From contig JBEKDT010000017.1 in the NCBI GenBank assembly GCA_050014195.1, positions 44,561-108,560 of the forward strand: a stretch of 64,000 nt of DNA, read 5' to 3'. Every line of letters begins with the position of its first letter. Position 1 is the first letter of the stretch. The stretch comes from Desulfomonilia bacterium (GTDB taxonomy: Bacteria > Desulfobacterota > Desulfomonilia > UBA1062). The translations under genes and the position numbers were made by a program. Of the stretch, positions 4,071 to 19,881 are shown in pieces. The notes below the pieces were generated by a model. That model did not search any database. It saw nothing but the letters and a program-made list of their open reading frames with translations, and was not told the DNA's origin.

Positions 4071-5615
4071 TTGACCGGGAAAGTCGAAGAACCAATGCGT
4101 GTTAAGAATTGGGAAATGAAAGAGCAATCAGATACCGTGGAGGTATCCGCAGATGTAGACGGCTTTCGCCTGTGGTTCCGATCACCAAAGTCCTATCCAG
4201 TTTCAAGAACAGGCGATCCCTTCCTGGCATCCGCGCTTCTTCCGGCGATGCGCCAAGGAGAGAAGCTTGAGTTTGACCCACGCCTGCCCGTTTCCCCGAA
4301 GTTACTGAGAAATGCTTTTGTGCTCCAGGAAATTTTCCATTCCTGGAATCCTGAAGAATTGAGAATGATCCCCGTCAGCGCTAAGACATCACCTGCCGAG
4401 CCGCTTAATACTGGCGCCATGTCCTTCTTCTCGGGAGGCGTGGACAGCATGTACACTTTTCTGAAGCGTAAGAATGAGCTCAGCCATGTGGTTAATATAT
4501 ATGGATTCGATTTCTTCTTCAACAGCGGGGATGCCTCGACATTCTCGGTTGCTGACCTCAAAGACTTGGCGCATTTCGCATGGAAGCTGATGTTACCGGT
4601 TGGCCCGGTGTCTGCCTACTTAAAGGGCATGCTCTCGAAAACAACGCTGCAAACTCTATCAAATTACGTAGATTCGGGCTCAGATCCAGGAGCAGTGGAA
4701 ACAAGTCTGGTAGAGGATCTTAACAAGATCATCTCCGGGCAGTTGATCTACGACAGAAAGCGCTTTGCGGGTGTCAACTTGCGGCCGCAAACAAGACATT
4801 TTATGTCGCGGGACCTGAAGGGAGAGGACCTGAGCGGCCTGAACCGGCTTCTTCTGGAGGACGCTTATCCACGTGAAATATCGGGAAAGTATAATGGAGC
4901 CTACCAGACGGCCATCGAGCGCAACACCTGCTTCGTTCAAAGCTTTGGGAAGACCCTCGTCCCTGTCGAGAATAATCATTATGCTTTTGGATATCGCTAC
5001 AATCTGAGTAGAAATTTAACACAGGGAAGTGCCTTGGCCAGTGTCGCGCTTCTCCTTGGGTTTCCTCAAGTCTATGTGCCATCTGCTTATACTTACAGGC
5101 AGCTATGTCCTTTGGGTTCGCACCCGCTGACGGATGGGCTATGGTCGAATGAATGTGTAGAAATCATACACGATGGCTGCGAGGCGGGACGGACAGATAA
5201 GCTCAAGATGATATGCGAATGCGAATCAGCTCTTACGAATTTAAGGGTCTGCTTCGATAATGTGAATATCAATTGTGGAAAGTGTGCAAAGTGTTTGCGC
5301 ACAATGATGCCCCTAAAATTGCTTCGTGCCTCTGCCGCCCCTTTCCCAACTCTTCCTTCCCTCAAAGTAATTCGGAAAAGCCGTATCTCTGATGATATCG
5401 AAACGAGCTTCTTCAAGGAGACGGTCGACCTTGCTTTGCAGACAGGAGACCAAGAAATGCGGTATGCTTTATGCGCATGTATGAAAAGGAATGAACTATT
5501 AAAGCTCCTAATAGATCTCGATAAGGTGCTCCTGGGGGGATTCATCAAGCGTGCATATCGAAGAATAGTGCCTGGTATAGGGATCCGTCGAATTGATACT
5601 ACCCCGAGAGATTGA
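4071..5615 (+). CDS. QueC-like PP-loop ATP-pyrophosphatase family protein with C-terminal Cys cluster and an approx. 120-aa inserted domain (likely start ATG 4095)
   Basis: SFFSGGVDS PP-loop; GSHP...WS...HDG; C-x7-C-x2-C-x2-C (RVCFDNVNINCGKCAKC). Confidence 0.7.
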   Translation: MTGKVEEPMRVKNWEMKEQSDTVEVSADVDGFRLWFRSPKSYPVSRTGDPFLASALLPAMRQGEKLEFDPRLPVSPKLLRNAFVLQEIFHSWNPEELRMIPVSAKTSPAEPLNTGAMSFFSGGVDSMYTFLKRKNELSHVVNIYGFDFFFNSGDASTFSVADLKDLAHFAWKLMLPVGPVSAYLKGMLSKTTLQTLSNYVDSGSDPGAVETSLVEDLNKIISGQLIYDRKRFAGVNLRPQTRHFMSRDLKGEDLSGLNRLLLEDAYPREISGKYNGAYQTAIERNTCFVQSFGKTLVPVENNHYAFGYRYNLSRNLTQGSALASVALLLGFPQVYVPSAYTYRQLCPLGSHPLTDGLWSNECVEIIHDGCEAGRTDKLKMICECESALTNLRVCFDNVNINCGKCAKCLRTMMPLKLLRASAAPFPTLPSLKVIRKSRISDDIETSFFKETVDLALQTGDQEMRYALCACMKRNELLKLLIDLDKVLLGGFIKRAYRRIVPGIGIRRIDTTPRD

Positions 5616-5648
5616 GCAGGATTTTCAGCTGGTATGTTGTTGGCTGCA

Positions 5649-5663
5649 TGGCCTCTGCTTTGC
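5649..5663 (+). promoter_or_regulatory. Possible sigma54 -24/-12 promoter
   Basis: TGGCCTCTGCTTTGC has the exact GG-N10-GC spacing; followed by a purine-rich RBS and a 29-aa GTG ORF (5696-5785). Confidence 0.3.
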
Positions 5664-5887
5664 AAAATTGCATGAATGAAGGGGGAGTCCTTCCTGTGAT
5701 CAATTTGGACTTGATCGCTATGAGCCTACCACCACTTGAGGCCCTTGAACAATTCCCATTGTGGCAAAACTTGGTTAGGAGCTGATATTCGACAATAATG
5801 GCATTTAATCCAATGATATCATTGCATTAAAATTGATATATTTTCTCTATCTTGAAATTCATGGGGAGTGCTGGAATGGGATATAAG

Positions 5888-5903
5888 GAAACTTTTGCAC
5901 AGC
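5888..5903 (+). repeat. Degenerate solo IS-type terminal inverted repeat (GAAACTTTTGCACAGC)
   Basis: Similar to the GAGACCTTTGCA motif repeated elsewhere in the island. Confidence 0.4.
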
Positions 5904-6002
5904 TCACCGGTGATTAGACGCAGATTTGGAGCTGATAATCTGTGATAACAGCAATTATCCAATTGATATTATTAATGATAACTGGTAGTCTTACTTATCA
6001 TT

Positions 6003-6098
6003 TAATCTCGTTTAGGGTTAATTCCCACGCTGCTTGCTGCGAAGGCATATTCTTTATAAAAAAATTTGAACCCTATAGCTTGCTGCAGGGTAGTTCAA
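6003..6098 (+). mobile_element. IS200/IS605-type end relic or non-autonomous palindromic element
   Basis: Two GCTTGCTGC-containing motifs; the second, GAACCCTATAGCTTGCTGCAGGGTAGTTCA, is a hairpin followed by the GTAGTTCA tail typical of IS200/IS605 right ends; no tnpA/tnpB. Confidence 0.5.
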
Positions 6099-6118
6099 AA
6101 TGAAACAATTGAGGACTT

Positions 6119-7873
6119 ATGAAAAAATTTACATTTAATCTGTTTCACGGGCAGAAGCCCTCCAATAATCAGGAATTTATAAAATGTTTCCCTACCTGGT
6201 GGTACTATACTGAAGGAATACCTGTAAAAGCAGGTGACTTAAATGGAAATGCTAAGTGGCTTCTGGCGGGTCGGCTCTTAAATGATCAGGATCCGAGTAA
6301 AATTATAGATTATTTTTATAGGCGACGTGATTACGAGTATCTATATCAAATTGATGGCCAGTTCATTTTTATTCTGTATTTTGAGAATGATGGAAGCGTT
6401 GAGATATATCGCGACCGTATTGGTACATTCCCAATTGCATATGCACAAGGTCGAAATGGTATTGCCATATCTGTAGATATTAATGACGTAAAGGATATGA
6501 CCGGTATAGTTCCTTCACCATCAACCGGTATCTTTGAACAATGGCCATTATATCGCAAAACATTTGCACCGGTTTCACCATTTTATGAAATTCATACCCT
6601 TGCCCCGGAGCATTCTTTACGTATCACAGGCTCTTCTTTTAATGAGATCAGTCACCCCATGTGTTTCCCTACTGAAGAAGAATATCCTGATATGAATATA
6701 TCGAGCCAGGTCTTAGGTGACGTACTTTCACGATCGATCCAGAAGAGAATTGAGATTTCAAAGAGAATGGGGGTCTTTCTCAGCGGGGGGAATGATTCCA
6801 GTTTGATTGTGGCAATTGTTAGAAAGTTCTATTTAAAAAAACTGAGAACACTCTTTGTCACATTTGAAGATAACCCTAGGGATTATGGTCATCATGCCCA
6901 GGAGGTAGCCGACAGGTTCGGCACCGATCATTCTTCTGTCACATTGAGCCCGAGAGACTATGTTGGAGTCTGGGCAGACACGATTAAAGTGCTGCAAACG
7001 CCTGTTCCTATGCCGTGTCATATAGGGATTCATCATGCCTTAAAAATGCTTTCAGGTGATGTTGATTTGATGATTGATGGCGATGGTGCTGATACGGTTT
7101 TTGGAAGCTCAATATGGCCAGAGATGATATTTTTATCACGTATTAATAGATTTATCCCAACATACCTGAAAGATGGTATCGGAAGATTGGCACATTCAAT
7201 GTCTTGTAATACGACCATAGTGCGAATAGCGGAGATGATTAAGACGGCCCTTAATTCTTCTCTCTATGAATACCCCCATGTAAATGCAGCAATGATTTCT
7301 GAAAGTGAATTCAATCAGATCTTTCTAAGAGGTGACTGGCAACAGGCAGTTCATTTCAGACAAGGCTTCGCAAGGGGTGATTTCTATAAAGGATTGTTTT
7401 CTTATCTTATGTTGCATGGTATACCGGAAGATCTCGCCACCACTGTCCGCTTGGGTTTGTCGCAGGGCATTTTCTTTGCGTATCCTTTCTTGGATTATGG
7501 TTTATTGCAGGCATCAATGCGATTGCCCAATAAACATCGGTATCATTACCGCATCCGTAAGGCGCCTTTGAAAAAATATTCTTTGAATTATTTCGACAAG
7601 GATTTCGTATATAAACCAAAGGAAGGTTTCGGTGTTCCTCTTGCTTCATGGTTCACGAAGAAAGAATTTGAGCCTTTCCTGATGCTGCCTCTCGAAGAGC
7701 GCAGCTTAAAACGTGGGTGGTGGAAGGAACTCGAGTTAAAGAGGATAATAGATTTGCACCGGAGGGGAGAGGGCAATGACAGTTCAGCAGAGGCTATACC
7801 ATGGATTGTAATCAATTTGGAATTATGGGCTCGTATATGTATCGATGGGGATTCTCCGAGTCAGTATAAATAA
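6119..7873 (+). CDS. Asparagine synthetase-like (AsnB) amide ligase with degenerate glutaminase domain
   Basis: DGQF..RDRIG, LSGGNDSS PP-loop, DGDGAD, YPFLD, KPKEGFGVP, NLELW; no N-terminal MCG. Confidence 0.85.
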   Translation: MKKFTFNLFHGQKPSNNQEFIKCFPTWWYYTEGIPVKAGDLNGNAKWLLAGRLLNDQDPSKIIDYFYRRRDYEYLYQIDGQFIFILYFENDGSVEIYRDRIGTFPIAYAQGRNGIAISVDINDVKDMTGIVPSPSTGIFEQWPLYRKTFAPVSPFYEIHTLAPEHSLRITGSSFNEISHPMCFPTEEEYPDMNISSQVLGDVLSRSIQKRIEISKRMGVFLSGGNDSSLIVAIVRKFYLKKLRTLFVTFEDNPRDYGHHAQEVADRFGTDHSSVTLSPRDYVGVWADTIKVLQTPVPMPCHIGIHHALKMLSGDVDLMIDGDGADTVFGSSIWPEMIFLSRINRFIPTYLKDGIGRLAHSMSCNTTIVRIAEMIKTALNSSLYEYPHVNAAMISESEFNQIFLRGDWQQAVHFRQGFARGDFYKGLFSYLMLHGIPEDLATTVRLGLSQGIFFAYPFLDYGLLQASMRLPNKHRYHYRIRKAPLKKYSLNYFDKDFVYKPKEGFGVPLASWFTKKEFEPFLMLPLEERSLKRGWWKELELKRIIDLHRRGEGNDSSAEAIPWIVINLELWARICIDGDSPSQYK

Positions 7874-7940: not shown

Positions 7941-9077
7941 ATGAAGATTGGTATTATACGAACTTCGCATAAGGAAAATGAACGTCGTGTCCCGATATAT
8001 CCGGAACACTTACCATGGATTGACCTTGAGTTGAGGAAACATCTTGTTTTCGAGAGTAATTATGGGCAGGATTATGGCTTTTCAGATGAATATTTTATTC
8101 GACATCAATCAAGTTTGTCTGACCGCCAGGGACTATTTAAGACATGTGATATGTTAATTCTACCGAAACCTATTCTTCAAGATTATGAACAGATGAAGGA
8201 ATTTCAGACAATATGGGGATGGCATCATTGTGTCCAGGGTAGGAAAATTTCCCAGGCAGCAATTGATCGAAAATTGACTTTGATTGCCTGGGAGGCCATG
8301 CACCAATGGAGTAAAGGCGGAGAACGCCTTATGCACTCTTTTTATAAAAACAATGAAATAGCTGGTTACTCTGCTGTTCTACACGTCTTGGAGTTGCTGG
8401 GTGTTGATGGGCACTATGGACCGAGGAAAAATGTTATTATTATTGGATACGGTTCAGTCAGTCGCGGAGCAATCTATGCTCTTCAGGGAAGAGGATACAA
8501 TAATATTCATGTCTATACCCGACGCCCAGTACATTTAGTAGCAGATCAGAATCCCGATGTGTATTATCATCATCTAGAAGTTGCACCAAATGGTCAGATG
8601 TTTGGGGTCCATAATGATAGATCAAGACGTCCTTTCGTTGAAGAACTTGCTGAAGCAGATATTATCTGCAATGGTATTCTTCAGGATACAGATAATCCTC
8701 TGATATTTGTAGATGAAAAAAATATTGATCTTCTAAAACCTCGGTCTGTAATTATTGATATCAGTTGCGATGAGGGTATGGGCTTTTCTTTTGCACGTCC
8801 AACGACATTTAAAGACCCCATTTTTTCAGTAGGACAAAATATCACTTACTATTCCGTTGACCATATTCCATCTTATCTTTGGAATGCGGCCTCAAGGGAA
8901 ATTTCAAGAGTTGTGCTATCTTTTCTGCCGATTTTAGCCGGGGGAATTCAATCCTGGTGTGAATGTGAGACTGTTAAAAAAGCCATTGAGATACGTAATG
9001 GCGTTATACAAAACCCCAAAATACTGTCATTTCAGAATCGACAAGAGGAATATCCACACCTAGAAGTAATTACATAA
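7941..9077 (+). CDS. ceo: N5-(carboxyethyl)ornithine synthase family (AlaDh/PNT fold) NAD(P)H-dependent reductive condensation enzyme
   Basis: SHKENERRVPIYP, GWHHCVQ, AWEAM, FYKNNEIAGY, IIGYGSVSRGA Rossmann motif, NGILQDTDNP, IDISCDEGMGF, VDHIPS. Confidence 0.85.
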   Translation: MKIGIIRTSHKENERRVPIYPEHLPWIDLELRKHLVFESNYGQDYGFSDEYFIRHQSSLSDRQGLFKTCDMLILPKPILQDYEQMKEFQTIWGWHHCVQGRKISQAAIDRKLTLIAWEAMHQWSKGGERLMHSFYKNNEIAGYSAVLHVLELLGVDGHYGPRKNVIIIGYGSVSRGAIYALQGRGYNNIHVYTRRPVHLVADQNPDVYYHHLEVAPNGQMFGVHNDRSRRPFVEELAEADIICNGILQDTDNPLIFVDEKNIDLLKPRSVIIDISCDEGMGFSFARPTTFKDPIFSVGQNITYYSVDHIPSYLWNAASREISRVVLSFLPILAGGIQSWCECETVKKAIEIRNGVIQNPKILSFQNRQEEYPHLEVIT

Positions 9078-9188: not shown

Positions 9189-10526
9189 ATGCATCCATTC
9201 ATAGCCAAACATCTCATTTATTATCCAATCCAGCTCCTTAGGGGCCAGATAGTCAGAAGATATAAACACCGGGTTATCTCCTGCCAAATTGCACCTACCA
9301 AAGTGATTTATGAAATCCGTGATAAGAAGATATGTGACCTGATCAAGTATGCCTATAACTATATTCCCTACTATCGTGAAAAATTTGATGAGCGAGATAT
9401 TAATCCAGACCGGATCAAAGGATTTAATGATCTGTCATGTCTTCCAATACTGTCTAAGCTTGATATTTTGACTAATGAACATAATCTCATTTCACACAAT
9501 TGTAGCCAAAAACTGTATACCAGAAAAACCAGCGGATCGACCGGAATGACCCTCCACTTTCAGAAAGAGGCCAGGGCACTGGCGCTCAATGATGCCGTCA
9601 TGTACCGCTGCTATGCATGGTATGGTATCGATATCGGGGATAAACAAGTTAGGTTCTGGGGGGTGCCGGTAGACCCCGCTCTGAGACGAAGGGAAAAGGT
9701 CAAAGACTTCATCCTAAACAGGATCAGGATCTCGGCTTTCGATATCTCCGAGCAATCCTGTCTGGCGCAGTACCAGAGAATAAAGCGGTTTAGGCCGGCA
9801 TATTTTTACGGTTATACTACCGCCATCTACGGTTTCTGCTCCTTTGCACAGAAGCTCGGCCTTGACCTTAATACACTTGGTCTGAGGGCCGTCATCTGCA
9901 CTGCTGAGAAGATGTACCCGCATCATCAGGATCTTTTCGATAAGGTGTTCAAATGCCCTGTGGTTGATGAATACGGTTCCAGCGAGAACGGCATCATCGC
10001 CTTCCAGTGTAAAGAGGGGAGCATGCATGTGATGGCGGATCATCTGGCCGTTGAATTTGTAGATGAAGCCGGGCAGAGGGTTAAACCCGGCGAGCTTGGA
10101 AGGATTGTTATAACGGATCTCAATGGATACGCCATGCCCCTTATACGGTATGAGATAGGCGATATGGGAAGGTATACGGAACAAGCATGTTCATGTGGAG
10201 TAACTTTGCCGGTGATGGACATCATTGAAGGGCGCAAAGAGGATTTCATCCGGACCCGGGAAGGAAAGCTCATCCATGCGGCCTACCTCTGTTATACCCT
10301 GAAGGATGACGCCGTCCATGAATTCAAAATGTATCAGAAGGATCTCAACAGGTTTCTTGTCCAGATAGTCAAATCGAATAAGTTTAATGCAGACTCCCAG
10401 AAGAAGCTCGAACATAAACTCAGGACAGCCCTGGGGGATAGCGTAGTTTTTGAGTTCCAGTTTCTGGAAAGGATTCCGAGAGAGGCATCAGGCAAGCTCA
10501 GATATTTCATCTCTGAAATCCGGTAA
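9189..10526 (+). CDS. Phenylacetate-CoA ligase family / CapK-like adenylate-forming enzyme
   Basis: IPYYR, LPILSK, KTSGSTG P-loop, DEYGSSE, ITDL, MPLIRYEIGD, IEGR, SGKLR. Confidence 0.88.
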   Translation: MHPFIAKHLIYYPIQLLRGQIVRRYKHRVISCQIAPTKVIYEIRDKKICDLIKYAYNYIPYYREKFDERDINPDRIKGFNDLSCLPILSKLDILTNEHNLISHNCSQKLYTRKTSGSTGMTLHFQKEARALALNDAVMYRCYAWYGIDIGDKQVRFWGVPVDPALRRREKVKDFILNRIRISAFDISEQSCLAQYQRIKRFRPAYFYGYTTAIYGFCSFAQKLGLDLNTLGLRAVICTAEKMYPHHQDLFDKVFKCPVVDEYGSSENGIIAFQCKEGSMHVMADHLAVEFVDEAGQRVKPGELGRIVITDLNGYAMPLIRYEIGDMGRYTEQACSCGVTLPVMDIIEGRKEDFIRTREGKLIHAAYLCYTLKDDAVHEFKMYQKDLNRFLVQIVKSNKFNADSQKKLEHKLRTALGDSVVFEFQFLERIPREASGKLRYFISEIR

Positions 10527-10642: not shown

Positions 10643-10912
10643 ATGGAATTGTATGCCGGATTGGATCTGCATTCACAGTACACCTACATTGGAGTGCTTG
10701 AGAAAGGGAGTATGAGGAAGGTGTTTCAGATGAGGGTATCGAATGAACTGCAGAGGATTATCTCTGCACTGGAGCCATTCAGAAATGAGCTCCAAGGTAT
10801 TGCGATAGAGAGTACTTTCAATTGTTACTGGCTTGTGGATGGGCTTATGGGTAGAGGGCAAAAGGGGAAAATCGGGCAGCAGATACAGCTCGAATTCATG
10901 GTGTTTGAATGA
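10643..10912 (+). pseudogene. Truncated IS110-family transposase (N-terminal RuvC-like DEDD domain only)
   Basis: YAGLDLHS and IAIESTFNCYWLVDGLM motifs; similarity ends near aa 68 and runs into unrelated sequence. Confidence 0.8.
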
Positions 10913-10953: not shown

Positions 10954-11109
10954 TATGCAAAGGTCTCGTATGGAGTGTGGGAATACCACCGGAAAGAGCA
11001 GATAATGGAGGAAATAGGCAGTAAACTAAGCTTTATTTCTTGAGATTTTCATGAAAAAAGCACCAATCAGTTTCCTCCGATTCCTTTCTTGTCCTTGTGC
11101 AAAGGTCTC
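10954..11109 (-). repeat. Two tandem IS-type right-end motifs (TGCAAAGGTCTC), each followed by GTATGGAG
   Basis: tatgcaaaggtctcgtatggag at 10954 and gtgcaaaggtctctgtatggag at 11097. Confidence 0.6.
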
Positions 11110-11128
11110 TGTATGGAGAACATCTCAA

Positions 11129-12223
11129 ATGGACAGTGAAATTTATGATAGATATTCAATCGAAGTGGATAGCATAGGAGCAGAAGAATGGAACACTGTG
11201 CTCAGAGTATTCTCTGATGCGTCTATATTTCAAACATATGAGTATGGGGTCGAAAATTGGGGAAAGAACCATCTTAGTCATATAGTATTAAGAAAGGATA
11301 ATGATATAGTGGCTGCTTCCCAAGTCTGGGTGGTAGAACTCCCGATTTTAAAATGTGGTTTTGCCCATATTCCGTGGGGCCCCATGTGGAAATGCAAAAA
11401 TCGAGAAAGAGATGTACAGACTGTTAGAATGATGCTTAGAGCGCTAAGAGATGAGTATGTGGAAAAGAGAGGACTTCTGCTGAGGTTAAGGGGTTACTCG
11501 GTATCGGGTACGGATGAAGGCAATGAAGTTATTCAACAGTTGAGCGAAGAAGGATTTACGTTCCAAAAGAGGGAAGCCGCATATCGTACGTATCGAATTA
11601 ATCTGACCAAGAGTTTGGAAGAACTGCGTACTAAGTTTAAAGGAAACTGGCGGAGAGATTTAATCAAGGCAGAGAGACAAGATCTAGAGATAGAAATAGG
11701 GAATAGTGTTTCCATGTTAGTGGTATTTTCAGAGATATATAAAGATATGGTTAGGAGAAAAGGCTTTAAAGAGTATGTTGCAGACATGAACAAATACATC
11801 GAAATGCAGAGAAGGTATCGGGATGATTTGAAGATGAATATCTTTTTATGTAAGCATGAGGGAACTTATGTAGCTGGCGCTGTTGTTCCGGCAATAGGTG
11901 ATACGGGGATGTATTTATTAGGGGCAACGAGTACTATATGTTTTGAAAAGAAATTACTTGCTTCTCACCTGATCCAGTGGCGAGTTCTCAGTTGCTTGAA
12001 ATCAAATGGATTCCGATACTATGACTTACGTGGAGGGATCGATGGTGACATGGAGGGAGTTAGGCATTTCAAAAGCGGTCTTTCTGGGGAGGAGATTCAC
12101 TACATAGGTTCGTATGAGTGTTCTCATAGAGTGTTAAGTGAGGTTGCCGTACGTACTGGTGAACATATTCAAAGAATGAAAGCCGGTCTACAAAATTTTG
12201 TGTGGAAGTTAGCAAGTAAATAA
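11129..12223 (+). CDS. FemAB/FemX-like GNAT-fold aminoacyl transferase (ORF open from 11051; likely start 11129 after GGAG)
   Basis: SIFQTYEY, IPWGP, YRTYRINLTKSLEELR..F..NWRR, YLLGAT, LIQW, YYDL, FKSG. Confidence 0.82.
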   Translation: MDSEIYDRYSIEVDSIGAEEWNTVLRVFSDASIFQTYEYGVENWGKNHLSHIVLRKDNDIVAASQVWVVELPILKCGFAHIPWGPMWKCKNRERDVQTVRMMLRALRDEYVEKRGLLLRLRGYSVSGTDEGNEVIQQLSEEGFTFQKREAAYRTYRINLTKSLEELRTKFKGNWRRDLIKAERQDLEIEIGNSVSMLVVFSEIYKDMVRRKGFKEYVADMNKYIEMQRRYRDDLKMNIFLCKHEGTYVAGAVVPAIGDTGMYLLGATSTICFEKKLLASHLIQWRVLSCLKSNGFRYYDLRGGIDGDMEGVRHFKSGLSGEEIHYIGSYECSHRVLSEVAVRTGEHIQRMKAGLQNFVWKLASK

Positions 12224-12314: not shown

Positions 12315-14018
12315 ATGAAAGGGCGTATTACATTCGGTTACCCCGATGATACGAAAGATGTTATTGTTCGCCTTCAGGGAGAGATATGGTCGATCCAAGG
12401 ACAGTCAACTCAGGGCATGGATATTCTTGAGCGGATTAAAATTGAATACTTGAATAAAGGAGTTGCTCTATTTGAAAAATTAGATGGATCATTTTCTCTT
12501 GTCATCGAAGATCATCAAAAAATGAAACTCTTTCTTGTACGAGACAAGCTCGGCACTATTCCTCTGTATCACGCAAAAAAAAGATGTACATTTACCTGGG
12601 GCAATCTCATAAGTGATATCCTTTCTGACCTGGAAATTGAAACGTCAGCCAATCATGATGTAATTCATGAATACTTAGTGTTTCGTTATGTTAGCGGGAG
12701 GAATACTCTTTTTCAAGGAATTCATGAGCTTTTACCGGCACATTATCTAGAGGTTGACCTTAGAAAAGGAGAAGTAGAGGAAAAGCAGTATTGGGATATT
12801 CCTTATCCCTGTAAATCTGAAATGATTAAAGATAATGATGAAACCTGTGTCGATAAAATAGAAGAGATTCTAATACGTATTCTCAAAAGAACTTTAAGTA
12901 AGAATTGTCGCTATGGAATCATGTTGAGCGGTGGGCTTGATTCAAGCCTGATAGCAGCTCTTGCGTCAAAACATGTTAATCATGGTTTCCCAACATTCTT
13001 TATAGGATTTACAGATTATGAGAGTGATCGCTCTCATGATGCCCAAATGGTAGCAGAAACATATCATATGATCCATTCAAATTTCTATGTTAACTCAAAA
13101 CAGTATGCTGAAGGTCTTATAGAAGCAATCAGAACCAACGAGGAACCACTTAACCATCCCGGTCATGTAGGAAGGGTTCTTTTCGATTCTCATACAAAAG
13201 ATAAAGTTGATGCTCTCCTTATGGGAGAAGGAGTCGATACAATGTTTTGTGGGGCAAAGGCTTACCCACTTCTTAAATATGGTTATATGTTCAATCCATT
13301 CAGGAAATTAACTAGGAGAATATTTTCATTGATAGACCCAGAAATAATTCCCGACTCACATAAGCGGTACTACACAAAGATAAGAGATGCATTTGTCATG
13401 AATGCTGATGAGTATATGATCCGAACTTTTGCAGCGGCAGAATTTCAAGAGGCAAGTGATCTATTGGAGCTTGAGGCTGATATGAGCTATCTTAACTATT
13501 ATAAAAGCTTTATATCTGAATGTACGAGAGAAAATGTTCTTGAGAAATACCTTATGCTCAATCAGCACACATTTATAGTTGAAGTACTGAATTCTGATGC
13601 AAAGTATAGAGAATTAAACCAAATAATTAATTATTATCCATTCCTGGATGTCGAATTACTATCGTTTTCAAATCACATTCCATTTAAAATACGGACCAAG
13701 GGGTTCACGGGAAAATATCTCATCAAGAAACTCGCTGAGAGATATTTTTCCAAGCATTTCATATATCAGCAAAAAGAGGGCTTTGGTGTGCCTTTGAAGA
13801 CCTACTTCCAGGATCCAGAGAGTATGGGGAGATATTTTGACCTCCTTTTGGAGAAGAGGACAATGGAAAGAGGAATTTTTAAAAGGAGAGAACTCTCTAA
13901 TTTTGTTGAAGGATTTCGGAAAGGCGAAATGCCTTCTGAGAGTTATGAGTCTTTGCTCTGGACTGCAATTAACCTTGAGTTATGGTACAGGATTTTTATC
14001 GATAGGAATGGTGTATGA
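12315..14018 (+). CDS. Second asparagine synthetase-like amide ligase lacking the N-terminal catalytic Cys
   Basis: LDGSF, RDKLGTIPLY, LSGGLDSS, GEGVD, YPFLD, KEGFGVP, NLELWYR. Confidence 0.87.
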   Translation: MKGRITFGYPDDTKDVIVRLQGEIWSIQGQSTQGMDILERIKIEYLNKGVALFEKLDGSFSLVIEDHQKMKLFLVRDKLGTIPLYHAKKRCTFTWGNLISDILSDLEIETSANHDVIHEYLVFRYVSGRNTLFQGIHELLPAHYLEVDLRKGEVEEKQYWDIPYPCKSEMIKDNDETCVDKIEEILIRILKRTLSKNCRYGIMLSGGLDSSLIAALASKHVNHGFPTFFIGFTDYESDRSHDAQMVAETYHMIHSNFYVNSKQYAEGLIEAIRTNEEPLNHPGHVGRVLFDSHTKDKVDALLMGEGVDTMFCGAKAYPLLKYGYMFNPFRKLTRRIFSLIDPEIIPDSHKRYYTKIRDAFVMNADEYMIRTFAAAEFQEASDLLELEADMSYLNYYKSFISECTRENVLEKYLMLNQHTFIVEVLNSDAKYRELNQIINYYPFLDVELLSFSNHIPFKIRTKGFTGKYLIKKLAERYFSKHFIYQQKEGFGVPLKTYFQDPESMGRYFDLLLEKRTMERGIFKRRELSNFVEGFRKGEMPSESYESLLWTAINLELWYRIFIDRNGV

Positions 14019-14038: not shown

Positions 14039-15190
14039 ATGTACACGAATCCTCAGAAATTGGGAATTATTAAACCACTCAGTCACATGAATGAACTTTT
14101 CAAAATCGAGGATATGTGGAGAAATATATATGAAACGGTATCTCCTAATTCAATTTTTATTTCTTTTGACTATATTATGCTGTGGTATAATTGCTTTGCT
14201 AGGCCCGAGCAGGTGAGGGTCTATCCAGCATATGAAGGTGATAAAATTATAGGTTATCTTCCATTAATATTAAATAAAAAAGGGCCATTTCGGTTTCTGT
14301 CAAGCCTTACCAATCTACATTGCTTTCACCCTGCTGCACTAATTGCTGAAGGTTATGAAGAGACATTTTCTAACAGTTGCTTGCACGCAATATTTTCAGA
14401 TAAATGCGGCTGGGATGTTTTTCAATACCGTAGCGGCTACTCCTTCCAATATGGTCTAAGTTTGAGCATACTAAGTCCATTAGCCTATCACTTCAAAGAA
14501 ATCAAACTACCAACATATTCTATGCTTATACCAGGTTCTTTTGAAGAATATTTCAATAAGCATCTATCCCCTCAAATGCGTAAAAATGCAAAAAGCTCAA
14601 AAAAAAGGCTACAAACAGTTCCCTCATATAGATTTTGCCACTATACAGGAGATGATGCTGTTGCATCATGGCCTACGTTTCTATCGATTGAAGATTCTGG
14701 GTGGAAGGGAGTAAAAGGTTCATCATTAAAGAAGCTTCCTCAGAACTATCATTCATATTATGTAGGCCTCATCGATATGTTATCTAAAAATAACCAGTTA
14801 CACATGTATTTTCTCGAAATCAATGGCCACCCTGTTGCGGGTACATTCTGTTATGTGGATCAAGATGTGTTTCACGCTTGGAAGGCCGGATACGTAGAAG
14901 AATTTTCCTCGCTCTCTCCCTCAACCCTGCTCTTACTTTATATCATAGAAGATCTCAATACTAATTTTCCAATGGTGAAACGTCTGCACATGTTTCCTGG
15001 TGATTTTGGCTATAAACACCGTTATGTTAACGAAGAATCTTTTTATTCTGAAGTCGTCTTGTACGATAGAACAATTCTCGGAAGTTCCGCACATATTCTT
15101 TCCCCGATAAAACAAAGAGTTGAGCTACTTCCAGGTATGTCTGCTGCCATTGGGTTTATTAGAAAGCATTTTTTTAGAGATGATGATTAA
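14039..15190 (+). CDS. GNAT-family acyltransferase (CelD/BcsL-like, Acetyltransf_6 type)
   Basis: SFEEY, IEDSGWKG, FLEING.PVA, KAGY...F...SP..LL, YK motifs. Confidence 0.8.
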   Translation: MYTNPQKLGIIKPLSHMNELFKIEDMWRNIYETVSPNSIFISFDYIMLWYNCFARPEQVRVYPAYEGDKIIGYLPLILNKKGPFRFLSSLTNLHCFHPAALIAEGYEETFSNSCLHAIFSDKCGWDVFQYRSGYSFQYGLSLSILSPLAYHFKEIKLPTYSMLIPGSFEEYFNKHLSPQMRKNAKSSKKRLQTVPSYRFCHYTGDDAVASWPTFLSIEDSGWKGVKGSSLKKLPQNYHSYYVGLIDMLSKNNQLHMYFLEINGHPVAGTFCYVDQDVFHAWKAGYVEEFSSLSPSTLLLLYIIEDLNTNFPMVKRLHMFPGDFGYKHRYVNEESFYSEVVLYDRTILGSSAHILSPIKQRVELLPGMSAAIGFIRKHFFRDDD

Positions 15191-15410: not shown

Positions 15411-15427
15411 TGTCGGGAATCTTTACA
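15411..15427. promoter_or_regulatory. Putative enhancer-binding site for a sigma54 activator (PrsR-type), copy 1: TGTCGGGAATCTTTACA
   Basis: 17-bp TGTCG-N6-TTTACA box repeated at 15514 and 16379, upstream of a PEP-CTERM gene. Confidence 0.7.
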
Positions 15428-15513
15428 ATTCTAAATTTATCATCTTTATTTATGAATATCAAACACATATAAGCTATTATACCAACGAATTAATTAAAAT
15501 TAATTCATAAAAT

Positions 15514-15530
15514 TGTCGAAATACTTTACA
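15514..15530. promoter_or_regulatory. Putative enhancer-binding site, copy 2: TGTCGAAATACTTTACA
   Basis: Same box about 65 bp upstream of the -24 element. Confidence 0.7.
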
Positions 15531-15595
15531 CAAATACTCCGATATTTATCTTGTCTGGAGTAATTAAAGCTTGTAAATCAAAGAGATACGTTAAT

Positions 15596-15611
15596 TGGCA
15601 TTAATATTGTA
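15596..15611 (+). promoter_or_regulatory. Sigma54 promoter of the PEP-CTERM gene (TGGCATTAATATTGTA; GT variant at -12)
   Basis: Correct -24/-12 spacing, AT-rich IHF-like stretch upstream, AGGAGG RBS downstream. Confidence 0.65.
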
Positions 15612-15645
15612 TAACTATCATTAATAAAAATATACAGGAGGTCAT

Positions 15646-16278
15646 ATGAAAAAAACTTTCATGACAATCGCAGCACTTTTTATTGTGCTCGGATTCACAG
15701 CATCAGTAGGAGCAACTACAATTCAAATTGTCGGCAGCTATTCGACTCTGGATTCGCTGACCTTCACTCTTCTTGGCCACACCTACCACGACCAGTTGGT
15801 GGGTGAGTTTAATCTCCTTATCGATAGCAAGCCGGAAACAGGATATTGTGTTGACTTGGGTCATCTTTTATATGTTCCCAGCGGACCCTTTAATGTAAAC
15901 CTTACTAGCGATCTGACCGATGAGGGCGATGTCCCCAACGGGTATGAAGCAGCATGGTTGTGGAACTATGTGGGTGATGCTCTAGATAAGGACCATAGAG
16001 CAGCGTTGCAGTTGGCAATATGGGATGTTGTGTTTGGGCCGGTTACCGGTATCTCCGAGCCGGCAGTCGCCGCAGAATACAATGCTTACTTAGCAGATCT
16101 TGCATTATATAGCTCATTTAATGGTGCAGGGTATGCTATTGCTGAACTAGGTGACCTACGCACACCATACCAGGATCTGCTGGTAAAAACCCCCGCCCCC
16201 GTTCCTGAGCCCATGACACTGTTGCTTCTCGGGTCAGGTCTTCTCGGACTGGCAGGATTCAGAAGGAAGATGAAATAG
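15646..16278 (+). CDS. PEP-CTERM sorting-domain surface protein with thioester-domain-like motifs
   Basis: Signal peptide; YCVDL and ALQLAIW motifs; C-terminal VPEP + TM helix + RRKMK. Confidence 0.93.
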   Translation: MKKTFMTIAALFIVLGFTASVGATTIQIVGSYSTLDSLTFTLLGHTYHDQLVGEFNLLIDSKPETGYCVDLGHLLYVPSGPFNVNLTSDLTDEGDVPNGYEAAWLWNYVGDALDKDHRAALQLAIWDVVFGPVTGISEPAVAAEYNAYLADLALYSSFNGAGYAIAELGDLRTPYQDLLVKTPAPVPEPMTLLLLGSGLLGLAGFRRKMK

Positions 16279-16305
16279 TAATACAACATATTGACTGGGT
16301 TTCAG

Positions 16306-16340
16306 AGGCAGGGCCATTGAAAGGCCCTGCCTTTTTATTT
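16306..16340 (+). terminator. Rho-independent terminator
   Basis: AGGCAGGGCC-loop-GGCCCTGCCT followed by a T-rich tract. Confidence 0.85.
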
Positions 16341-16395: not shown

Positions 16396-16486
16396 GTCAG
16401 ATATATGAGAATCAATCCCATTCATGCTTTTATATGAACTGTAGATAACTGCGGTGCGCGATATAAATCTCAGATGACACTTTTAG

Positions 16487-16628
16487 GAGACCTTTGTATA
16501 ACCCTATGTCAGTCATTGCGAGCGTAGCGAAGCAATCCCTGCATCTTGGCACATTCTAGGTTTGTCGAGATTGCCATGTCGCCTTTGGTTCCTCGCAATG
16601 ACCGATTAGTAGGCTTTGCAAAGGTTTC
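16487..16628. mobile_element. 142-bp MITE-like element with IS-type terminal IRs and an internal nested palindrome
   Basis: GAGACCTTTGTATAACC...GGCTTTGCAAAGGTTTC ends; internal GTCATTGCGAG (16512)...CTCGCAATGAC (16602) and GCAATC...GATTGC pairs. Confidence 0.75.
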
Positions 16629-16636
16629 AATAGGGA

Positions 16637-16673: not shown

Positions 16674-16680
16674 ATTCTTT

Positions 16681-16777
16681 ATAGGAGCTATTTTAGACGC
16701 GATGTGGTGGTGGGGAAGGCCTTGTGCCCGCCCTTTCTTTATTGTCACGCCATGATCGCGAATAAATTCGCTCCTAC
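16681..16777. repeat. REP/BIME-like pair (GTAG-type REP)
   Basis: Minus strand GTAGGAGCGAATTTATTCGCGAT (16755-16777) faces a degenerate ATAGGAGCTATTTTAGACGCGAT (16681-16703); a second REP-like GTGGGGAAGGCCTTGTGCCCGCCCT lies between them. Confidence 0.65.
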
Positions 16778-16836
16778 GGGGTGGTAGGGAATGCCGGGTG
16801 TAGATCATAGAATGAAGTCAGTCCCTTGCAGCACGA

Positions 16837-17466
16837 TTACTTTTTATATCGCTTCAACAATATGTTTACACTATATTTATTCAAGAAATATACCTTTACT
16901 AAAAGTAAGATAGGTTTAGCTCCAAGTTTTTGCTTGAACCTCATTGCGGATATATTGAAGTATTCGGTTATACTATAGATCTTATAACAACCCATTCCAT
17001 GGAGATGTTTATAAAACTGAAGTCTAAGATATGGTGCTATGCCCCTACCTCGGTACTCCTCTACTGTAAGAGCATTGGACAGATATGCTTCATCATGGTC
17101 CAACAGAAAAGGATAAAGGTTTGAATCACACTCCCGTGTATTACACCACATATGTGCGATAATACGAGTCCCGCACATAAGGCCAAGGCATAACCACCCT
17201 CTTTCCAACCTCTCCAGCAGTATCTCCTCTGTCTCCTTTACACCGGGTGTCTCTGATACCTGTTTCATATCTAAAGATCCCAGTAAGAGCAGATTAAATT
17301 CATCTGCATTCATCTTAATGCTGATGGCAGAGTGTGTAAGTGATCCGAGTCCTTCCTCCATCACATAAAAAGGCACTATACGGACCAATGACTTGGATAT
17401 GTCATAGAGAGATTGTAGTAAAGAATGCTTATTAATAAATTCTTTTGTTCTGAATAAAGGGTTCAT
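16837..17466 (-). CDS. GNAT family N-acetyltransferase
   Basis: AYLSNALTVEEYRGRGIA acetyl-CoA loop, N..A.RF..KLG; start chosen 4 nt after the BKACE stop. Confidence 0.8.
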   Translation of the reverse strand: MNPLFRTKEFINKHSLLQSLYDISKSLVRIVPFYVMEEGLGSLTHSAISIKMNADEFNLLLLGSLDMKQVSETPGVKETEEILLERLERGWLCLGLMCGTRIIAHMWCNTRECDSNLYPFLLDHDEAYLSNALTVEEYRGRGIAPYLRLQFYKHLHGMGCYKIYSITEYFNISAMRFKQKLGAKPILLLVKVYFLNKYSVNILLKRYKK

Positions 17467-17470
17467 AATT

Positions 17471-18304
17471 CTATATCTGAAGGATCTCCCTTGCCTCATG
17501 CGGTGAATAAGGGCTGAAGCCCATTGCCTTTGCAATGGTCACCACTCGTTTTACCAACGAATAATTCGTAGCAAGCTTACTCCTATCGCTATCGAACCAT
17601 ATATTATCTTCCAACCCCACTCTCACACCACCTCCTGATATGATGGAGATTACATTCATCTTGAGCTGGGAATTTCCTATCCCACCTACAGACCAGACAG
17701 AATGTTCAGGTAATTCCCTTACCATAAGGCCGAGATGAAGTATATCTGCTTGAGCACAGGCAATGTTTCCCAGGATCAGGTTAAAATAATATGGAGGTTC
17801 AATAAGGTCTTTATTTATTAGGTACTTTGCATAATTAATCATGCCAAGGTCAAAGGCTTCAAGTTCTGGCTTAATCCTCTCTTTCATCATCTTCGCCGCA
17901 AGGGCTTGAATCATGTCCGGAGTGCTGATGCTTGCCTGCTTATTAAAATTTAGTGAGCTTAAGGTGAGGCTGGCAAAATCCGGCTTTAGCTCACCTTTAA
18001 GATCGAGGCAGTCTGATCTTTGTTCAAATGCATTAAAATCTCTTCCGCTTGTTGAAACCCCTAAAATCAGATCCTTATTTCTCTGCCGTATCCCATGGAT
18101 AATTTCTCCATAAATCTCTTTTTTATAAGTTACTCTGCCTGTTTCGGGGTCCCTTGCATGAAGATGCACCATGCTTGCACCGAGAGTAGCAATATCAAGT
18201 ACCTCTTGGACGATATCACCTGGGGTTAAAGCAATATGTGGTGTCATTTCTTTGGTAGGGATCATGCCTGTTGGGGTGAAATTTAATATAAACTTATTTG
18301 ACAT
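17471..18304 (-). CDS. Beta-keto acid cleavage enzyme (3-keto-5-aminohexanoate cleavage / DUF849 family)
   Basis: PTG..PTK..TPH, HLHARD metal motif, STSGR, SLNF, PELEAFD, RVGLEDN. Confidence 0.92.
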   Translation of the reverse strand: MSNKFILNFTPTGMIPTKEMTPHIALTPGDIVQEVLDIATLGASMVHLHARDPETGRVTYKKEIYGEIIHGIRQRNKDLILGVSTSGRDFNAFEQRSDCLDLKGELKPDFASLTLSSLNFNKQASISTPDMIQALAAKMMKERIKPELEAFDLGMINYAKYLINKDLIEPPYYFNLILGNIACAQADILHLGLMVRELPEHSVWSVGGIGNSQLKMNVISIISGGGVRVGLEDNIWFDSDRSKLATNYSLVKRVVTIAKAMGFSPYSPHEAREILQI

Positions 18305-18555
18305 ATGCCACCGCCATCGCAGACAATTCTTTTATTACTATCAAGCCAATTGCAAAACTCGCAGTTTGCGATAATATTGCAATAAGCCTGATAACTAATT
18401 GAAGATATGAAGACAAAACTCTATTCTTTTTGTGTAGAGCAAAAAGAAAGGAGTAAAGATGAGCAATCTCTTCGACATCTAGCATACCACATAGGCGATA
18501 CTTTTTCCATTTTAACAGTAACGGCACACGATATGCTGATTGCAATGAAGCATGC

Positions 18556-19881
18556 TTATCCCCTTCCGATGCCGAAATAGGTAAACCCGTGTGAATGCAT
18601 CTCAGGTGGATTGAGTATGTTTCTCCCGTCAAAGATTACAGGGCGCTTCAAGAGATCTTTCATGCGCTTGATGTCCGGGCTCTTGAACATGTTCCATTCG
18701 GTGATAATGGCCAGGGCATCGGACCCTTCAATGGCTGCGTAATGGTCATGCGCATATGTGATCCTCTCACCGAGAATCCGTCGTGCATTCTCTTTTCCCT
18801 CGGGATCGAAGGCCTTTACTGTTATGCCCTGAGACAAGAGCGCTTCGATAATATCAAGAGCAGGTGATTCACGCACATCATCGGTCTTGGGCTTGAAGGT
18901 GAGGCCCCAGATTGCGATTGTGATCTTGTTGAGATCCTCACCATGGAAGAAGTTGATTATCTTCTGGGCAAAGTAGCGCTTCTGCCGCTGGTTTGCACGC
19001 CAAGTCGCCTCACAGATCTCTAGGGTATGATCATTGCTCTTTGCAGTTGCAATAAGGGCCTGAACATCTTTAGGGAAACATGAACCTCCAAACCCAGGCC
19101 CGGCAAGGAGGAAACGTGGGCCAATACGATCATCCGTGCCCATACCCTCCCTTACGAGGTCGATATTCGCACCGAGCTTATCACAGAGGATGGCAAGCTC
19201 GTTGATAAAGGATACCTTGGTAGCCAGGAAGCAGTTGGATGCGTACTTGGTGAGTTCCGCGCTTCTGATGTCCATTACGATAATGGGATTGTTCGTCGTC
19301 TTGATGAAAGGGCTATAGAGCTCCTTGAGGATCTCGGCAGTGCGGACGTTGTCTGTGCCGATGATCACCCGGTCAGGCCGCATGAAGTCCTGGATGGCAT
19401 TGCCTTCCTTGAGAAATTCCGGGTTGGACACCATGTCGAACTCCAAGTGTTTAAGCAGCCTGGCATCTAGTTTTCTCCTGATCGTATCGTGCACCTTCTC
19501 CGCGGTCCCTACCGGGACCGTGGATTTGTCGACAATGATCTTGTAGTCGTCTATGATGTCGCCAAGCTGGGAGGCGACGGTGAGCACGTAGGAGAGGTCT
19601 GCCGAACCGTCTTTATCCTGCGGTGTGCCGACACAGATGAAACAAAGCAGGCTCTTCTTTACACCCTCCTGCAAGTCGGTGGTGAAGATGATCCTTCCTT
19701 CTTCCTTGTTTCGGGCAATGATGTCCTTGAGCCCGGGCTCATAGATAGGTACTTCTCCCCTCTGAAGCATAGAGATCTTTTCTGAGTTCTCATCAACACA
19801 AATAACATCATTGCCCATTTCAGCAAGACATGCCCCGGTAACAAGCCCAACGTATCCACTGCCGATCATACAGATTTTCAT
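18556..19881 (-). CDS. ugd: UDP-glucose 6-dehydrogenase
   Basis: IGSGYVGL, VGTP, KSTVPVGT, SNPEFLKEG, GFGGSCFPKD, FKPKTDDVRESP, DGRN. Confidence 0.95.
   Translation of the reverse strand: MKICMIGSGYVGLVTGACLAEMGNDVICVDENSEKISMLQRGEVPIYEPGLKDIIARNKEEGRIIFTTDLQEGVKKSLLCFICVGTPQDKDGSADLSYVLTVASQLGDIIDDYKIIVDKSTVPVGTAEKVHDTIRRKLDARLLKHLEFDMVSNPEFLKEGNAIQDFMRPDRVIIGTDNVRTAEILKELYSPFIKTTNNPIIVMDIRSAELTKYASNCFLATKVSFINELAILCDKLGANIDLVREGMGTDDRIGPRFLLAGPGFGGSCFPKDVQALIATAKSNDHTLEICEATWRANQRQKRYFAQKIINFFHGEDLNKITIAIWGLTFKPKTDDVRESPALDIIEALLSQGITVKAFDPEGKENARRILGERITYAHDHYAAIEGSDALAIITEWNMFKSPDIKRMKDLLKRPVIFDGRNILNPPEMHSHGFTYFGIGRG

Follow-up and report, generated by a model that had tools for sequence, protein, structure and literature searches.

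The window analysed is a stretch of 64,000 nucleotides from a Desulfomonilia bacterium, and the genes at issue lie near its start (Table 1). Every gene listed in the original prediction was found there as an open reading frame. The stretch is the end part of a polysaccharide locus of the exosortase/PEP-CTERM type, which continues further upstream on the same contig with prsK/prsR, a TIGR03019 FemAB, an exosortase, EpsI, GT2 and GT4 genes, a flippase and an O-antigen-ligase-like gene. TIGR02602, TIGR02914, TIGR02916, TIGR02915 and TIGR03019 scored above cut-off in this upstream part and TIGR02595 did so in the window, so that all components by which such loci are recognised were found (exosortase, EpsI, PrsK/PrsR, TIGR03019 FemAB, PEP-CTERM protein, glycosyltransferases and flippase); given prsK/prsR, the exosortase, EpsI, the glycosyltransferases and the flippase upstream, we consider the island real. 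The wecB gene and the two GT4 genes were 69%, 49% and 64% identical to genes of a syntenic Acidobacteriota locus, G401.

Table 1. Features at the island end, with positions in the window
Feature	Position	Strand	Remarks
wecB and two GT4 genes	257..3699	+	continuation of upstream polysaccharide operon; TIGR00236 above cut-off, GT4 families
QueC-fold PP-loop protein, predicted adenylating enzyme	4071/4095..5615	+	SGGVDS; C-x7-CxxCxxC; insert of ~120 residues
AsnB1, glutaminase-less AsnB-fold ligase, predicted amide ligase	6119..7873	+	PF00733, 154 bits; 67 bp upstream of Ceo-like gene
Ceo-like AlaDh/PNT-fold reductase	7941..9077	+	PF05222 and PF01262; predicted NADPH-dependent opine (N-carboxyalkyl amino acid) synthase
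CapK/PaaK-like AMP-forming ligase	9189..10526	+	PF00501; TSGSTG, YGSSE, GRKED and SGK motifs
Transposase N-terminal remnant, presumably IS110-like	10643..10860	+	between capK and fem
FemAB-like transferase, accessory	11051..12223 (likely start 11129)	+	PF02388, 54.7 bits, cut-off 24
AsnB2, second glutaminase-less AsnB-fold ligase, accessory	12315..14018	+	PF00733, 152 bits
GNAT (Acetyltransf_6), accessory	14039..15190	+	PF13480
PEP-CTERM secreted protein	15646..16278	+	PF07589, TIGR02595; between the two gene blocks
GNAT	16837..17535	-	PF00583
BKACE	17471..18304	-	PF05853, 265 bits
Ugd, UDP-glucose 6-dehydrogenase	18556..19881	-	three UDPG_MGDP_dh domains; island edge, adjoins tRNA-Phe

The original prediction had treated these genes as one polysaccharide locus. 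That holds in the physical sense, yet its make-up is mosaic. The ugd-bkace-gnat block runs towards the plus-strand genes, and between them stands the PEP-CTERM gene, for which a pattern search with standard motif definitions gave a sigma-54-like site at 15596, TGT..TTTACA boxes at 15411 and 15514, and a terminator at 16304-16334. The transposase remnant, IS110-like to judge by its motif, was 56% identical over 71 aa to an intact open reading frame on another contig (C7) and gave no match in a Pfam search at 1e-3. GC3 ranged from 0.31 (ceo) to 0.62 (ugd). The opposite strands, the terminator, the insertion sequence scar and the GC3 spread together indicate piecemeal assembly.

The Ceo-like reductase has the AlaDh_PNT N and C domains with the Arg/Lys/His catalytic set, and R16, K76, H96 and D277 were invariant. 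With the Lactococcus N5-(carboxyethyl)ornithine synthase (ceo, CEOS, EC 1.5.1.24) it shares, besides the AlaDh/PNT fold and this catalytic set, GWxH, N..AGY and a Rossmann strand end free of acidic residues (YTRR), unlike four Ald sequences; it differs from that enzyme in length (378 versus 310 aa) and in having DHxP at the place of PNxP. Its identity was 44% to a Streptomyces protein likewise named Ceo but only 25% to the Lactococcus enzyme, hardly more than the 21-25% to Ald; a tree grouped it with Lactococcus Ceo rather than Ald at a branch support of 100, a tentative placing in view of a long-branch warning and the low identity. Assignment as alanine dehydrogenase was rejected (TIGR00518, 61 bits against a cut-off of 391.85; no acidic residue in YTRR; VDHIP instead of ANMP), and the same genome encodes a separate Ald. 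The top structural match was an alanine dehydrogenase (Z 31.6), but as no CEOS structure was among the fold matches this result does not discriminate. CEOS itself acts on pyruvate and ornithine or lysine with NADPH, and the three lactococcal or vagococcal ceo genes examined had no ligase or glycan neighbours.

Both AsnB-fold proteins proved to lack a glutaminase, as had been predicted: the N-terminal Cys (Cys2) and the HRGP segment were looked for and were absent from each, while the synthetase motifs were kept (SGGNDS/GDGAD/KEGF in AsnB1, SGGLDS/GEGVD/KEGF in AsnB2) and PF00733 was above cut-off. The glutamine-hydrolysing AsnB amidotransferases (TIGR01536, TIGR03108) were rejected on these grounds and on scores below cut-offs, TIGR03108 giving 109 and 179 bits respectively against 817; this sets both proteins apart from the uronamide synthases WbpS/PGN_1234 and TIGR03108, of which an AsnB homolog producing uronamide is described in a portion of PMC7468200. 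AsnB2 was only 28% identical to AsnB1 and had no homolog at 40% identity or more in 160 Ceo loci. AsnB1 is one of a distinct family of 49 proteins (identity of at least 39%); genes of its type flank the Ceo-like gene in two other loci (L022 and L041), and beside the closest relative of the reductase (L090, 72%) a Cys-less AsnB again lies directly upstream. In the reverse direction the link was weak: 3 of 48 AsnB1 homologs lay on a contig equal in length to one with a Ceo homolog, where 0.3 were expected and shuffles gave up to 3, the Ceo list holding nearest relatives only.

Across genomes, the pairing of a Ceo-type enzyme with an amide ligase in glycan loci was borne out. With ligase profiles seeded from these same neighbours, a ligase was found within 600 bp of the reductase in 33 of 44 window-side loci (dereplicated at 95%, with 1.5 kb or more of sequence to either side of the reductase) versus none of 38 in the sister clade; a Pfam check on 91 adjacent ORFs from 35 of these 38 loci agreed. 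The types were TupA (17), RimK-like (9), AsnB (6), CapK (2) and ATPgrasp_ST (1). Counting a ligase or the PP-loop gene raised the figure to 40 of 44, and at 80% dereplication the corresponding values were 22 and 27 of 31. Among long loci, 15 of 22 had the adjacency, where random placement would give 2.2. The ligase type switched at least 10 times on a 54-row tree, the AsnB label requiring 4 changes, and the window-side set was a grade rather than a supported clade (0.85 in a separate analysis). Of the 46 window-side loci for which both flanks were available, 39 had glycan genes; of the 160 Ceo loci, no more than 5 had an NDP-sugar dehydrogenase at a distance of up to 10 kb. The sister clade adjoins a saccharopine dehydrogenase in 8 loci, indicating that the reductase family handles other substrates as well. 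The conserved core is thus a Ceo-like reductase with an adjoining amide ligase, one slot being filled by four unrelated ligase folds.

The PP-loop protein, which matched neither Pfam (at 0.01) nor NCBIfam, has a QueC fold as had been proposed. Its model (pLDDT 94) matched QueC at Z 12.7 (rmsd 3.4, 172 aligned) and Cap9 at Z 11.6, and the top Foldseek match was QatC (E 0.007). S113, G115, D117, R366, K369, C386, C397 and C400 are invariant in the family, and the zinc motif, C386-x7-C394xxC397xxC400, differs by one in spacing from the canonical C(x)8CxxCxxC. While the SGGxDS PP-loop and the four-Cys zinc motif are common to it and QueC, QatC and Cap9 (PF06508), it differs from them in its extra N-terminal domain, its insert, its glycan context and the lack of a PF06508 match; the canonical QueC motifs YxQxHxxE, VPxRN and YPDC (PMC13329287) were absent from the family consensus. 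QatC has been proposed to join a carboxylate to a glycine amine in that same paper, which mentions neither 'polysaccharide' nor 'glycosyl'. A homolog occurred in 26 of 160 Ceo loci, and 18 of 119 homologs lay on a contig equal in length to one with a Ceo homolog where 1.2 were expected, making this protein a frequent third partner of reductase and ligase. It is likely part of the same chemistry, though not as the sole ligase, because loci that have it often contain a TupA or RimK-like ligase as well. The reductase was paired with the PP-loop gene only, remote from glycan genes, in about ten Aminicenantes-type loci; some of these pairs adjoin an amino-acid permease.

Matches of CapK to PaaK-like profiles stayed below cut-offs; its copies in the Acidobacteriota loci G401 and G402 were 59-60% identical and adjoined Wzy/GT4 genes, 11.6-14.5 kb from the Ceo gene. 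CapK is probably part of the backbone in loci of this type, but its tie to the opine step is uncertain. Exosortase polysaccharide loci are described as including AsnB-like and FemAB-like genes in portions of PMC7468200 and PMC9012009. The Fem of the window, a PF02388 (FemABX) protein with putative aminoacyl-tRNA donor use, was only 21% identical to the upstream TIGR03019 FemAB and differs from the VimA/TIGR03019 type of PEP-CTERM loci in its TIGR03019 score of 15 (cut-off 260); its PDB match was weak (E 0.001), and Ceo loci gave weak matches in 2 of 160. The Acetyltransf_6 GNAT had a tblastn match in 1 of 160 Ceo loci, and the minus-strand GNAT and BKACE in none each. BKACE homologs adjoined hexapeptide acyltransferases in 8 of 13 loci, and the GNAT and BKACE pair (16837..18304) probably forms a separate acyl-supply module. 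Ugd, 72% and 70% identical to orthologs in two family relatives, is native-looking and a plausible source of uronate. The placing of BKACE and Ugd in the same pathway was not upheld.

Could all ten enzymes, the four adenylating ones with Fem, both GNATs, BKACE and Ugd, nevertheless form one pathway to a peptide-decorated or cross-linked matrix, as originally predicted? All the genes fall into 16 kb at one island end, and the search then suggested, for ceo with Cys-less asnB, capK and femAB, found Ceo, AsnB1, CapK, a PP-loop homolog and the PEP-CTERM FemAB together in G401 and G402, a success if the standard FemAB is counted; AsnB, CapK and Fem occurred together in none of the 160 Ceo loci. As close homologs of Fem, AsnB2, both GNATs and BKACE were missing from those loci and from the two syntenic 80-kb regions, and the stretch bears the marks of piecemeal assembly given above, we regard a ten-gene pathway as very unlikely; these five are likely independent tailoring genes.

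We propose, with about even confidence and by analogy, that an N-(carboxyalkyl) amino acid is made NADPH-dependently and then amide-linked to a uronate, a glutaminase-less AsnB replacing the usual ATP-grasp (a profile search found no ATP-grasp match among 14 window proteins). The reductase would likely condense a 2-oxo acid with the side-chain amine of an amino acid, a reaction suggested by the Ceo-type motifs, with NADPH as reductant because the Rossmann strand end lacks an acidic residue; the substrates may be pyruvate and lysine or ornithine, and 2-oxoglutarate is possible too. The AsnB-fold ligase would then attach the opine to the repeat unit at the carboxyl of a uronic acid, the acceptor being suggested by the action of TupA-type Cj1438 and AsnB-type WbpS on uronate C6. 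The missing Cys2 in the adjacent AsnBs fits an amine other than glutamine-derived ammonia. According to passages of PMC11800379, the TupA-like ATP-grasp domain of Cj1438 amidates GlcA C6 in the Campylobacter jejuni HS:2 capsule, where an amine-supplying step (with the phosphatase Cj1435) is likewise combined with an ATP-dependent ligase for uronate C6. Among the ligases paired with the reductase family of the window, TupA is the most frequent. The HS:2 amine is serinol or ethanolamine phosphate, and the window puts a Cys-less AsnB in the slot, which speaks against membership in this type of system but not against a like mode of action. The product that we predict exists, known from chemistry, as the carboxyethyl-lysine galacturonamide of the Providencia rustigianii O14 O-antigen, as reported in part of PMC10609480.

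The linkage might instead run in reverse: CapK, AsnB1 or the PP-loop protein would activate the carboxyl of the opine, which would then be moved to an amino sugar as an N-acyl decoration. Alanopine on Qui4N exists in Providencia alcalifaciens O35 (an excerpt of PMC10609480), the window locus, G401 and G402 all keep a DegT-like aminotransferase, CapK and GNATs, and CapK was the adjacent ligase in 4 loci. However, TupA is characterised on a uronate carboxyl (PMC11800379, in part) and CapK in G401 and G402 does not adjoin the reductase, so that we hold this to be unlikely. We also think it improbable that the reductase yields, through amination by ammonia or ethanolamine, a plain amino acid or small amine for the neighbouring ligase, with the Cys-less AsnBs and the QueC-fold protein perhaps making primary amides from free ammonia: QueC uses ammonia (PMC13329287), N-(carboxyethyl)ethanolamine phosphate is known in Proteus (PMC9630907), one locus (L153) has cytidylyltransferase and CDP-alcohol transferase genes adjoining the pair, and the best fold match is alanine dehydrogenase, but that match is the non-discriminating one, four motif regions favour Ceo over Ald and a separate Ald is encoded in the genome.

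Beta-lactam and carbapenam synthetases, which are Cys-less enzymes of the AsnB fold, form lactams from carboxyethyl-type acids, and the reductase with AsnB1 or the PP-loop protein could on that precedent make a free small molecule, such as an opine lactam, unconnected to the glycan. The AsnBs weakly match CarA and lasso/macrolactam cyclases, and the Aminicenantes-type pairs stand apart from glycan genes; set against the glycan setting of the window-side loci, and the use by most of them of ATP-grasp ligases typical of polysaccharide loci, this appears highly improbable.

Opine-amidated sugars have been known from decades of O-antigen chemistry, and a literature search found no gene assigned to them. 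It is possible, and we suggest it tentatively, that this is a widespread undescribed glycan-tailoring cassette of an opine synthase, a ligase slot of four unrelated folds (TupA ATP-grasp, RimK ATP-grasp, glutaminase-less AsnB and CapK) and a new QueC-fold family, in which AsnB1 would be the first AsnB-fold enzyme to join the amine of an amino acid to a sugar acid, and which would supply the missing genetic route to carboxyethyl-lysine glycans. The cassette offers two or three enzymes open to assay and a genomic marker for predicting the decoration; to it the window adds the glutaminase-less AsnB, a ligase fold not yet tied to the opine step, along with a QueC-fold family placed among glycan genes. 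If the proposal is true, the zwitterionic substituent would alter the charge of floc and biofilm matrices, how they bind metals and how phages recognise them.

The reductase gene of the window and the ligase gene beside it form a conserved pair found in glycan loci, with AsnB1 filling the ligase slot in the window. The reductase is a member of a large protein family, with matches at 1e-20 among 7319 of 8000 candidates, and of patchy distribution: 5 of 401 genomes of the phylum have it and none of the six genomes of the bacterial family does. It was 25% identical to Lactococcus N5-(carboxyethyl)ornithine synthase (Ceo, or CEOS) and 21-25% identical to four alanine dehydrogenase (Ald) proteins and, therefore, identity by itself cannot name it. 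The motifs lean toward Ceo: where Ald has YLH/YFH, PMSE and Asp, the reductase and Ceo both show GWxH, N..AGY and a second Rossmann strand that ends without an acidic residue. A separate Ald is encoded on another contig (C5) of the same genome. A fold search ranked AlaDH (Z 31.6) ahead of transhydrogenase, yeast saccharopine dehydrogenase (24.6) and LKR (24.2), with no CEOS structure among the matches listed. We read the protein as a predicted Ceo-type NADPH-dependent secondary-amine synthase, a reading to which the CEOS reaction is the background.

A first genome scan with the reductase as single query gave no relatives; alignment-based scans did find them, and the best 80 of 242 and best 80 of 468 matches were taken as 160 loci with flanks of up to 10 kb, distant family members being left out, and their ORFs were clustered. 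The commonest neighbours in these best-match loci were TupA-like (PF14305) and RimK-like ATP-grasp ligases, the PP-loop family of the window, CapA-like PGA_cap proteins, flippases and glycosyltransferases (GTs). The tree of the 137 distinct full-length matches had two sides, a sister clade (SH-aLRT 99 in a further tree) which contains the Streptomyces 'Ceo' and lacks glycan genes, and the window side, which is an unresolved grade. After dereplication at 95%, with at least 1.5 kb required on both flanks, an amide ligase lay within 600 bp of the reductase in 33 of 44 window-side best-match loci versus 0 of 38 in the sister clade, and a ligase or PP-loop gene was near it in 40 of the 44; the loci are related, not independent, so these counts overstate the statistical strength. 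Because the ligase profiles had been seeded from neighbours in these very loci, the sister clade was rechecked with Pfam, which assigned no such ligase among 91 adjacent ORFs from 35 of its 38 loci. In 22 long loci the two genes were adjacent 15 times, versus 2.2 under random placement. Ligase types were nearly mutually exclusive, with at least 10 type changes on a 54-row tree, and there is evidence that the slot beside the reductase is interchangeable.

Other arrangements were seen among the collected loci. On one Syntrophobacteraceae contig (L016/L017), two reductase and TupA cassettes are separated by about 16 kb. In 16 of the 160 best-match loci (L024, L037, L146 and 13 more), where the ligase is TupA or RimK-like, the pair is followed by genes for a divergent enolase-like protein (128 bits, cut-off 300) and a histidine phosphatase; a 2-oxo acid supply, or phosphate removal as by Cj1435, is a possible role for them. 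The PGA_cap metallophosphoesterase gene is near the reductase in 16 of the 160, mostly with RimK-like ligases. In the glycan locus L145 two opine-type enzymes stand side by side, an octopine/nopaline dehydrogenase-family gene following a CapK and reductase pair directly on its 3' side. In eight sister-clade loci (L036, L039, L040, L049, L050, L064, L159 and L165) a saccharopine dehydrogenase gene is directly upstream of the reductase, a pairing which suggests lysine catabolism.

Features of the window and of collected loci (L-numbers)
Feature	Coordinates	Strand	Remark
Broken frame	window 3691-3960		
PP-loop gene	window 4095-5615		start judged by homolog length
PP-loop insert	window 4500-4900		residues ~140-265
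AsnB1	window 6119-7873		
Reductase	window 7941-9077	+	
CapK	window 9189-10526		
Fem	window 11051-12223		
AsnB2	window 12315-14018		
GNAT	window 14039-15190	+	
PEP-CTERM gene	window 15646-16278 (region 15500-16340)		
GNAT	window 16837-17535	-	
BKACE	window 17471-18304	-	
Ugd	window 18556-19881	-	
tRNA-Phe	window 20030-20105		end of low-GC 20 kb
Short intergenic elements	window 5995-6100, 16487-16630, 18344-18430		
PGA_cap	L012:8770-9957		and 15 more loci
PGA_cap	L180:4210-5421		
Enolase-like/phosphatase locus	L024:12072-13877		
Octopine/nopaline dehydrogenase family	L145:11414-12382		

AsnB1 and AsnB2 both lack the N-terminal Cys and the HRGP segment and keep the synthetase motifs; four ordinary Cys-bearing AsnBs are encoded elsewhere in the genome. 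The AsnBs adjoining reductases were Cys-less, as in L090, whose reductase is the closest relative (72%), and in cultured Dechloromonas strains; Dechloromonas sp. CZR5 and ARDL1 (L030, L029) have a Cys-less AsnB-like gene immediately upstream of the reductase, adjacent to a PEP-CTERM locus. At 1e-60, AsnB1 had no counterpart among 400 other genomes of the phylum, nor at 1e-50 among 380 others of the class of G401, an Acidobacteriota genome with a syntenic locus. In reverse, just 3 of 48 AsnB1 homologs were located on a contig with a reductase, the reductase list being incomplete, and this link is the weakest step of the mechanism.

The PP-loop protein gave no family matches, only weak MnmA matches when its sequence was compared with solved structures, and no Foldseek match at E 0.001, the top one being QatC at E 0.007. 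Structural matches of its model (pLDDT 94) included QueC (Z 12.7, rmsd 3.4, 172 aligned) and Cap9 (Z 11.6). The protein retains SGGxDS and a four-Cys motif but lacks the other canonical QueC motifs given in PMC13329287. The gene occurs in 26 of the 160 best-match loci, usually directly upstream of the reductase, and identity reaches at least 40% in 24 of the 26. Among 119 homologs in a second data set, 18 were on a contig of exactly the same length as that of a reductase homolog, where chance predicts 1.2. It accompanies TupA in eight loci and RimK-like ligases in four and is, therefore, not simply one more ligase. In about 10 Aminicenantes-type loci (L018, L021, L033, L046, L105, L109, L120, L122, L128 and L138) it is the sole reductase partner, divergent and outside glycan genes, with an amino-acid permease near some. 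A tie of the broad PP-loop family to the reductase was rejected: distant members, found without a reductase, occurred in 10 of 400 genomes of the phylum and in none of the four with a reductase match. The 506-aa forms carry an insert of about 120 residues that the 385-aa forms lack; by itself this segment also gave matches to unrelated ORFs of two genomes.

The window spans positions 44561-108560 of contig C17; GC content is 0.37-0.47 over its first 20 kb and higher in the housekeeping region that follows. The 27 kb of contig upstream of the window contain prsR, prsK, a TPR gene, vanZ, a TIGR03019 FemAB, a DegT-like gene, GT2, exosortase, EpsI, acetyltransferases, three GT4s, a flippase, an O-antigen-ligase-like gene and a deacetylase, which makes the stretch the tail of an exosortase/PEP-CTERM polysaccharide locus. 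Such loci are known to include AsnB-like and FemAB-like genes (PMC7468200, PMC9012009). A strand switch, the remnant of an IS and a PEP-CTERM gene that has signals of its own divide the stretch; counts of sigma-70 promoters (52 vs 49.7) and terminators (12 vs 15.7) were at chance level. A paralog 51% identical to the PEP-CTERM gene lies on contig C12, with the same terminator and an upstream region that matches at 79% over 128 bp. Three short intergenic elements, likely miniature repeats, have 77-97% copies on several other contigs. The broken frame near the start of the window resembles a GT4 C-terminus; its candidacy as a glycosyltransferase scar was dropped, tblastn support being absent at 1e-4.

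All ORFs listed in the original prediction were present with the folds assigned to them. If the standard PEP-CTERM FemAB is counted, its expected co-occurrence of ceo, Cys-less asnB, capK and femAB held in 80 kb of G401 and of G402, a second Acidobacteriota genome, where a locus of the same type has the reductase (59-60%), AsnB1 (43-53%) and CapK (59-60%, adjoining Wzy and GT4 genes), along with other GTs, DegT, exosortase and that FemAB. It did not extend to the 160 best-match loci, none of which had AsnB, CapK and Fem together within 10 kb (62 loci reach 19 kb, 25 of these window-side). The PP-loop gene has a 58-60% copy in G402 and a distant one in G401; many G402 genes are in pieces, possibly from sequencing errors.

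That all ten enzymes serve one pathway, as originally put forward, we consider very improbable. The G401 and G402 regions have no close homologs of the window Fem, AsnB2, the two GNATs or BKACE; within 10 kb in the 160 best-match loci, BKACE and the minus-strand GNAT had no counterpart, Fem had weak matches in two and Ugd-like genes were in five. The codon usage of Ugd is native and two relatives have orthologs of 70-72% identity, but it does not co-travel with the reductase-ligase core; the G401 and G402 NDP-sugar dehydrogenases are only 26-27% like it, that of G401 scoring better as HexNAc-type. Ugd can act as a uronate source, and so could a TviB-like enzyme encoded on contig C2. BKACE homologs in the phylum adjoin hexapeptide acyltransferases in 8 of 13 loci, and BKACE is, as judged by its neighbours, a putative separate acyl module. 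With L192-L204 it forms a glycan-associated subfamily (46-69% identity) by NeuD/PglB-type acyltransferases and DegT genes; in the window, a GNAT stands where the acyltransferase sits elsewhere.

For the reductase-ligase pair itself, we propose that the reductase would form an opine, and that a uronate carboxyl would be adenylated and then attacked by the free amine of the opine, by analogy with Cj1438 and WbpS as described in PMC11800379 and PMC7468200. What would result resembles the carboxyethyl-lysine galacturonamide known from P. rustigianii O14 (PMC10609480). Opine formation followed by ligase-made amide linkage to uronate has about an even chance of being correct. The opposite linkage, with the opine on an amino sugar as in the alanopine glycan of P. 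alcalifaciens O35, seems unlikely, and use of a plain amine or ammonia instead of an opine is a little more doubtful; release of a free lactam is very improbable. The observation is real and in part as originally proposed, and is read here as a form of uronate amidation.

Our literature search, mostly outside subscription journals, found no gene assigned to this chemistry and nothing that ties polysaccharide amidation to a Ceo-like gene; the amidoligase survey of Iyer et al. 2009 may already predict part of this. The Proteus O-antigen cluster supplements (PMC5560731) may list such genes for O13. What the window adds is a glutaminase-less AsnB version, a PP-loop partner and evidence of an interchangeable ligase slot.
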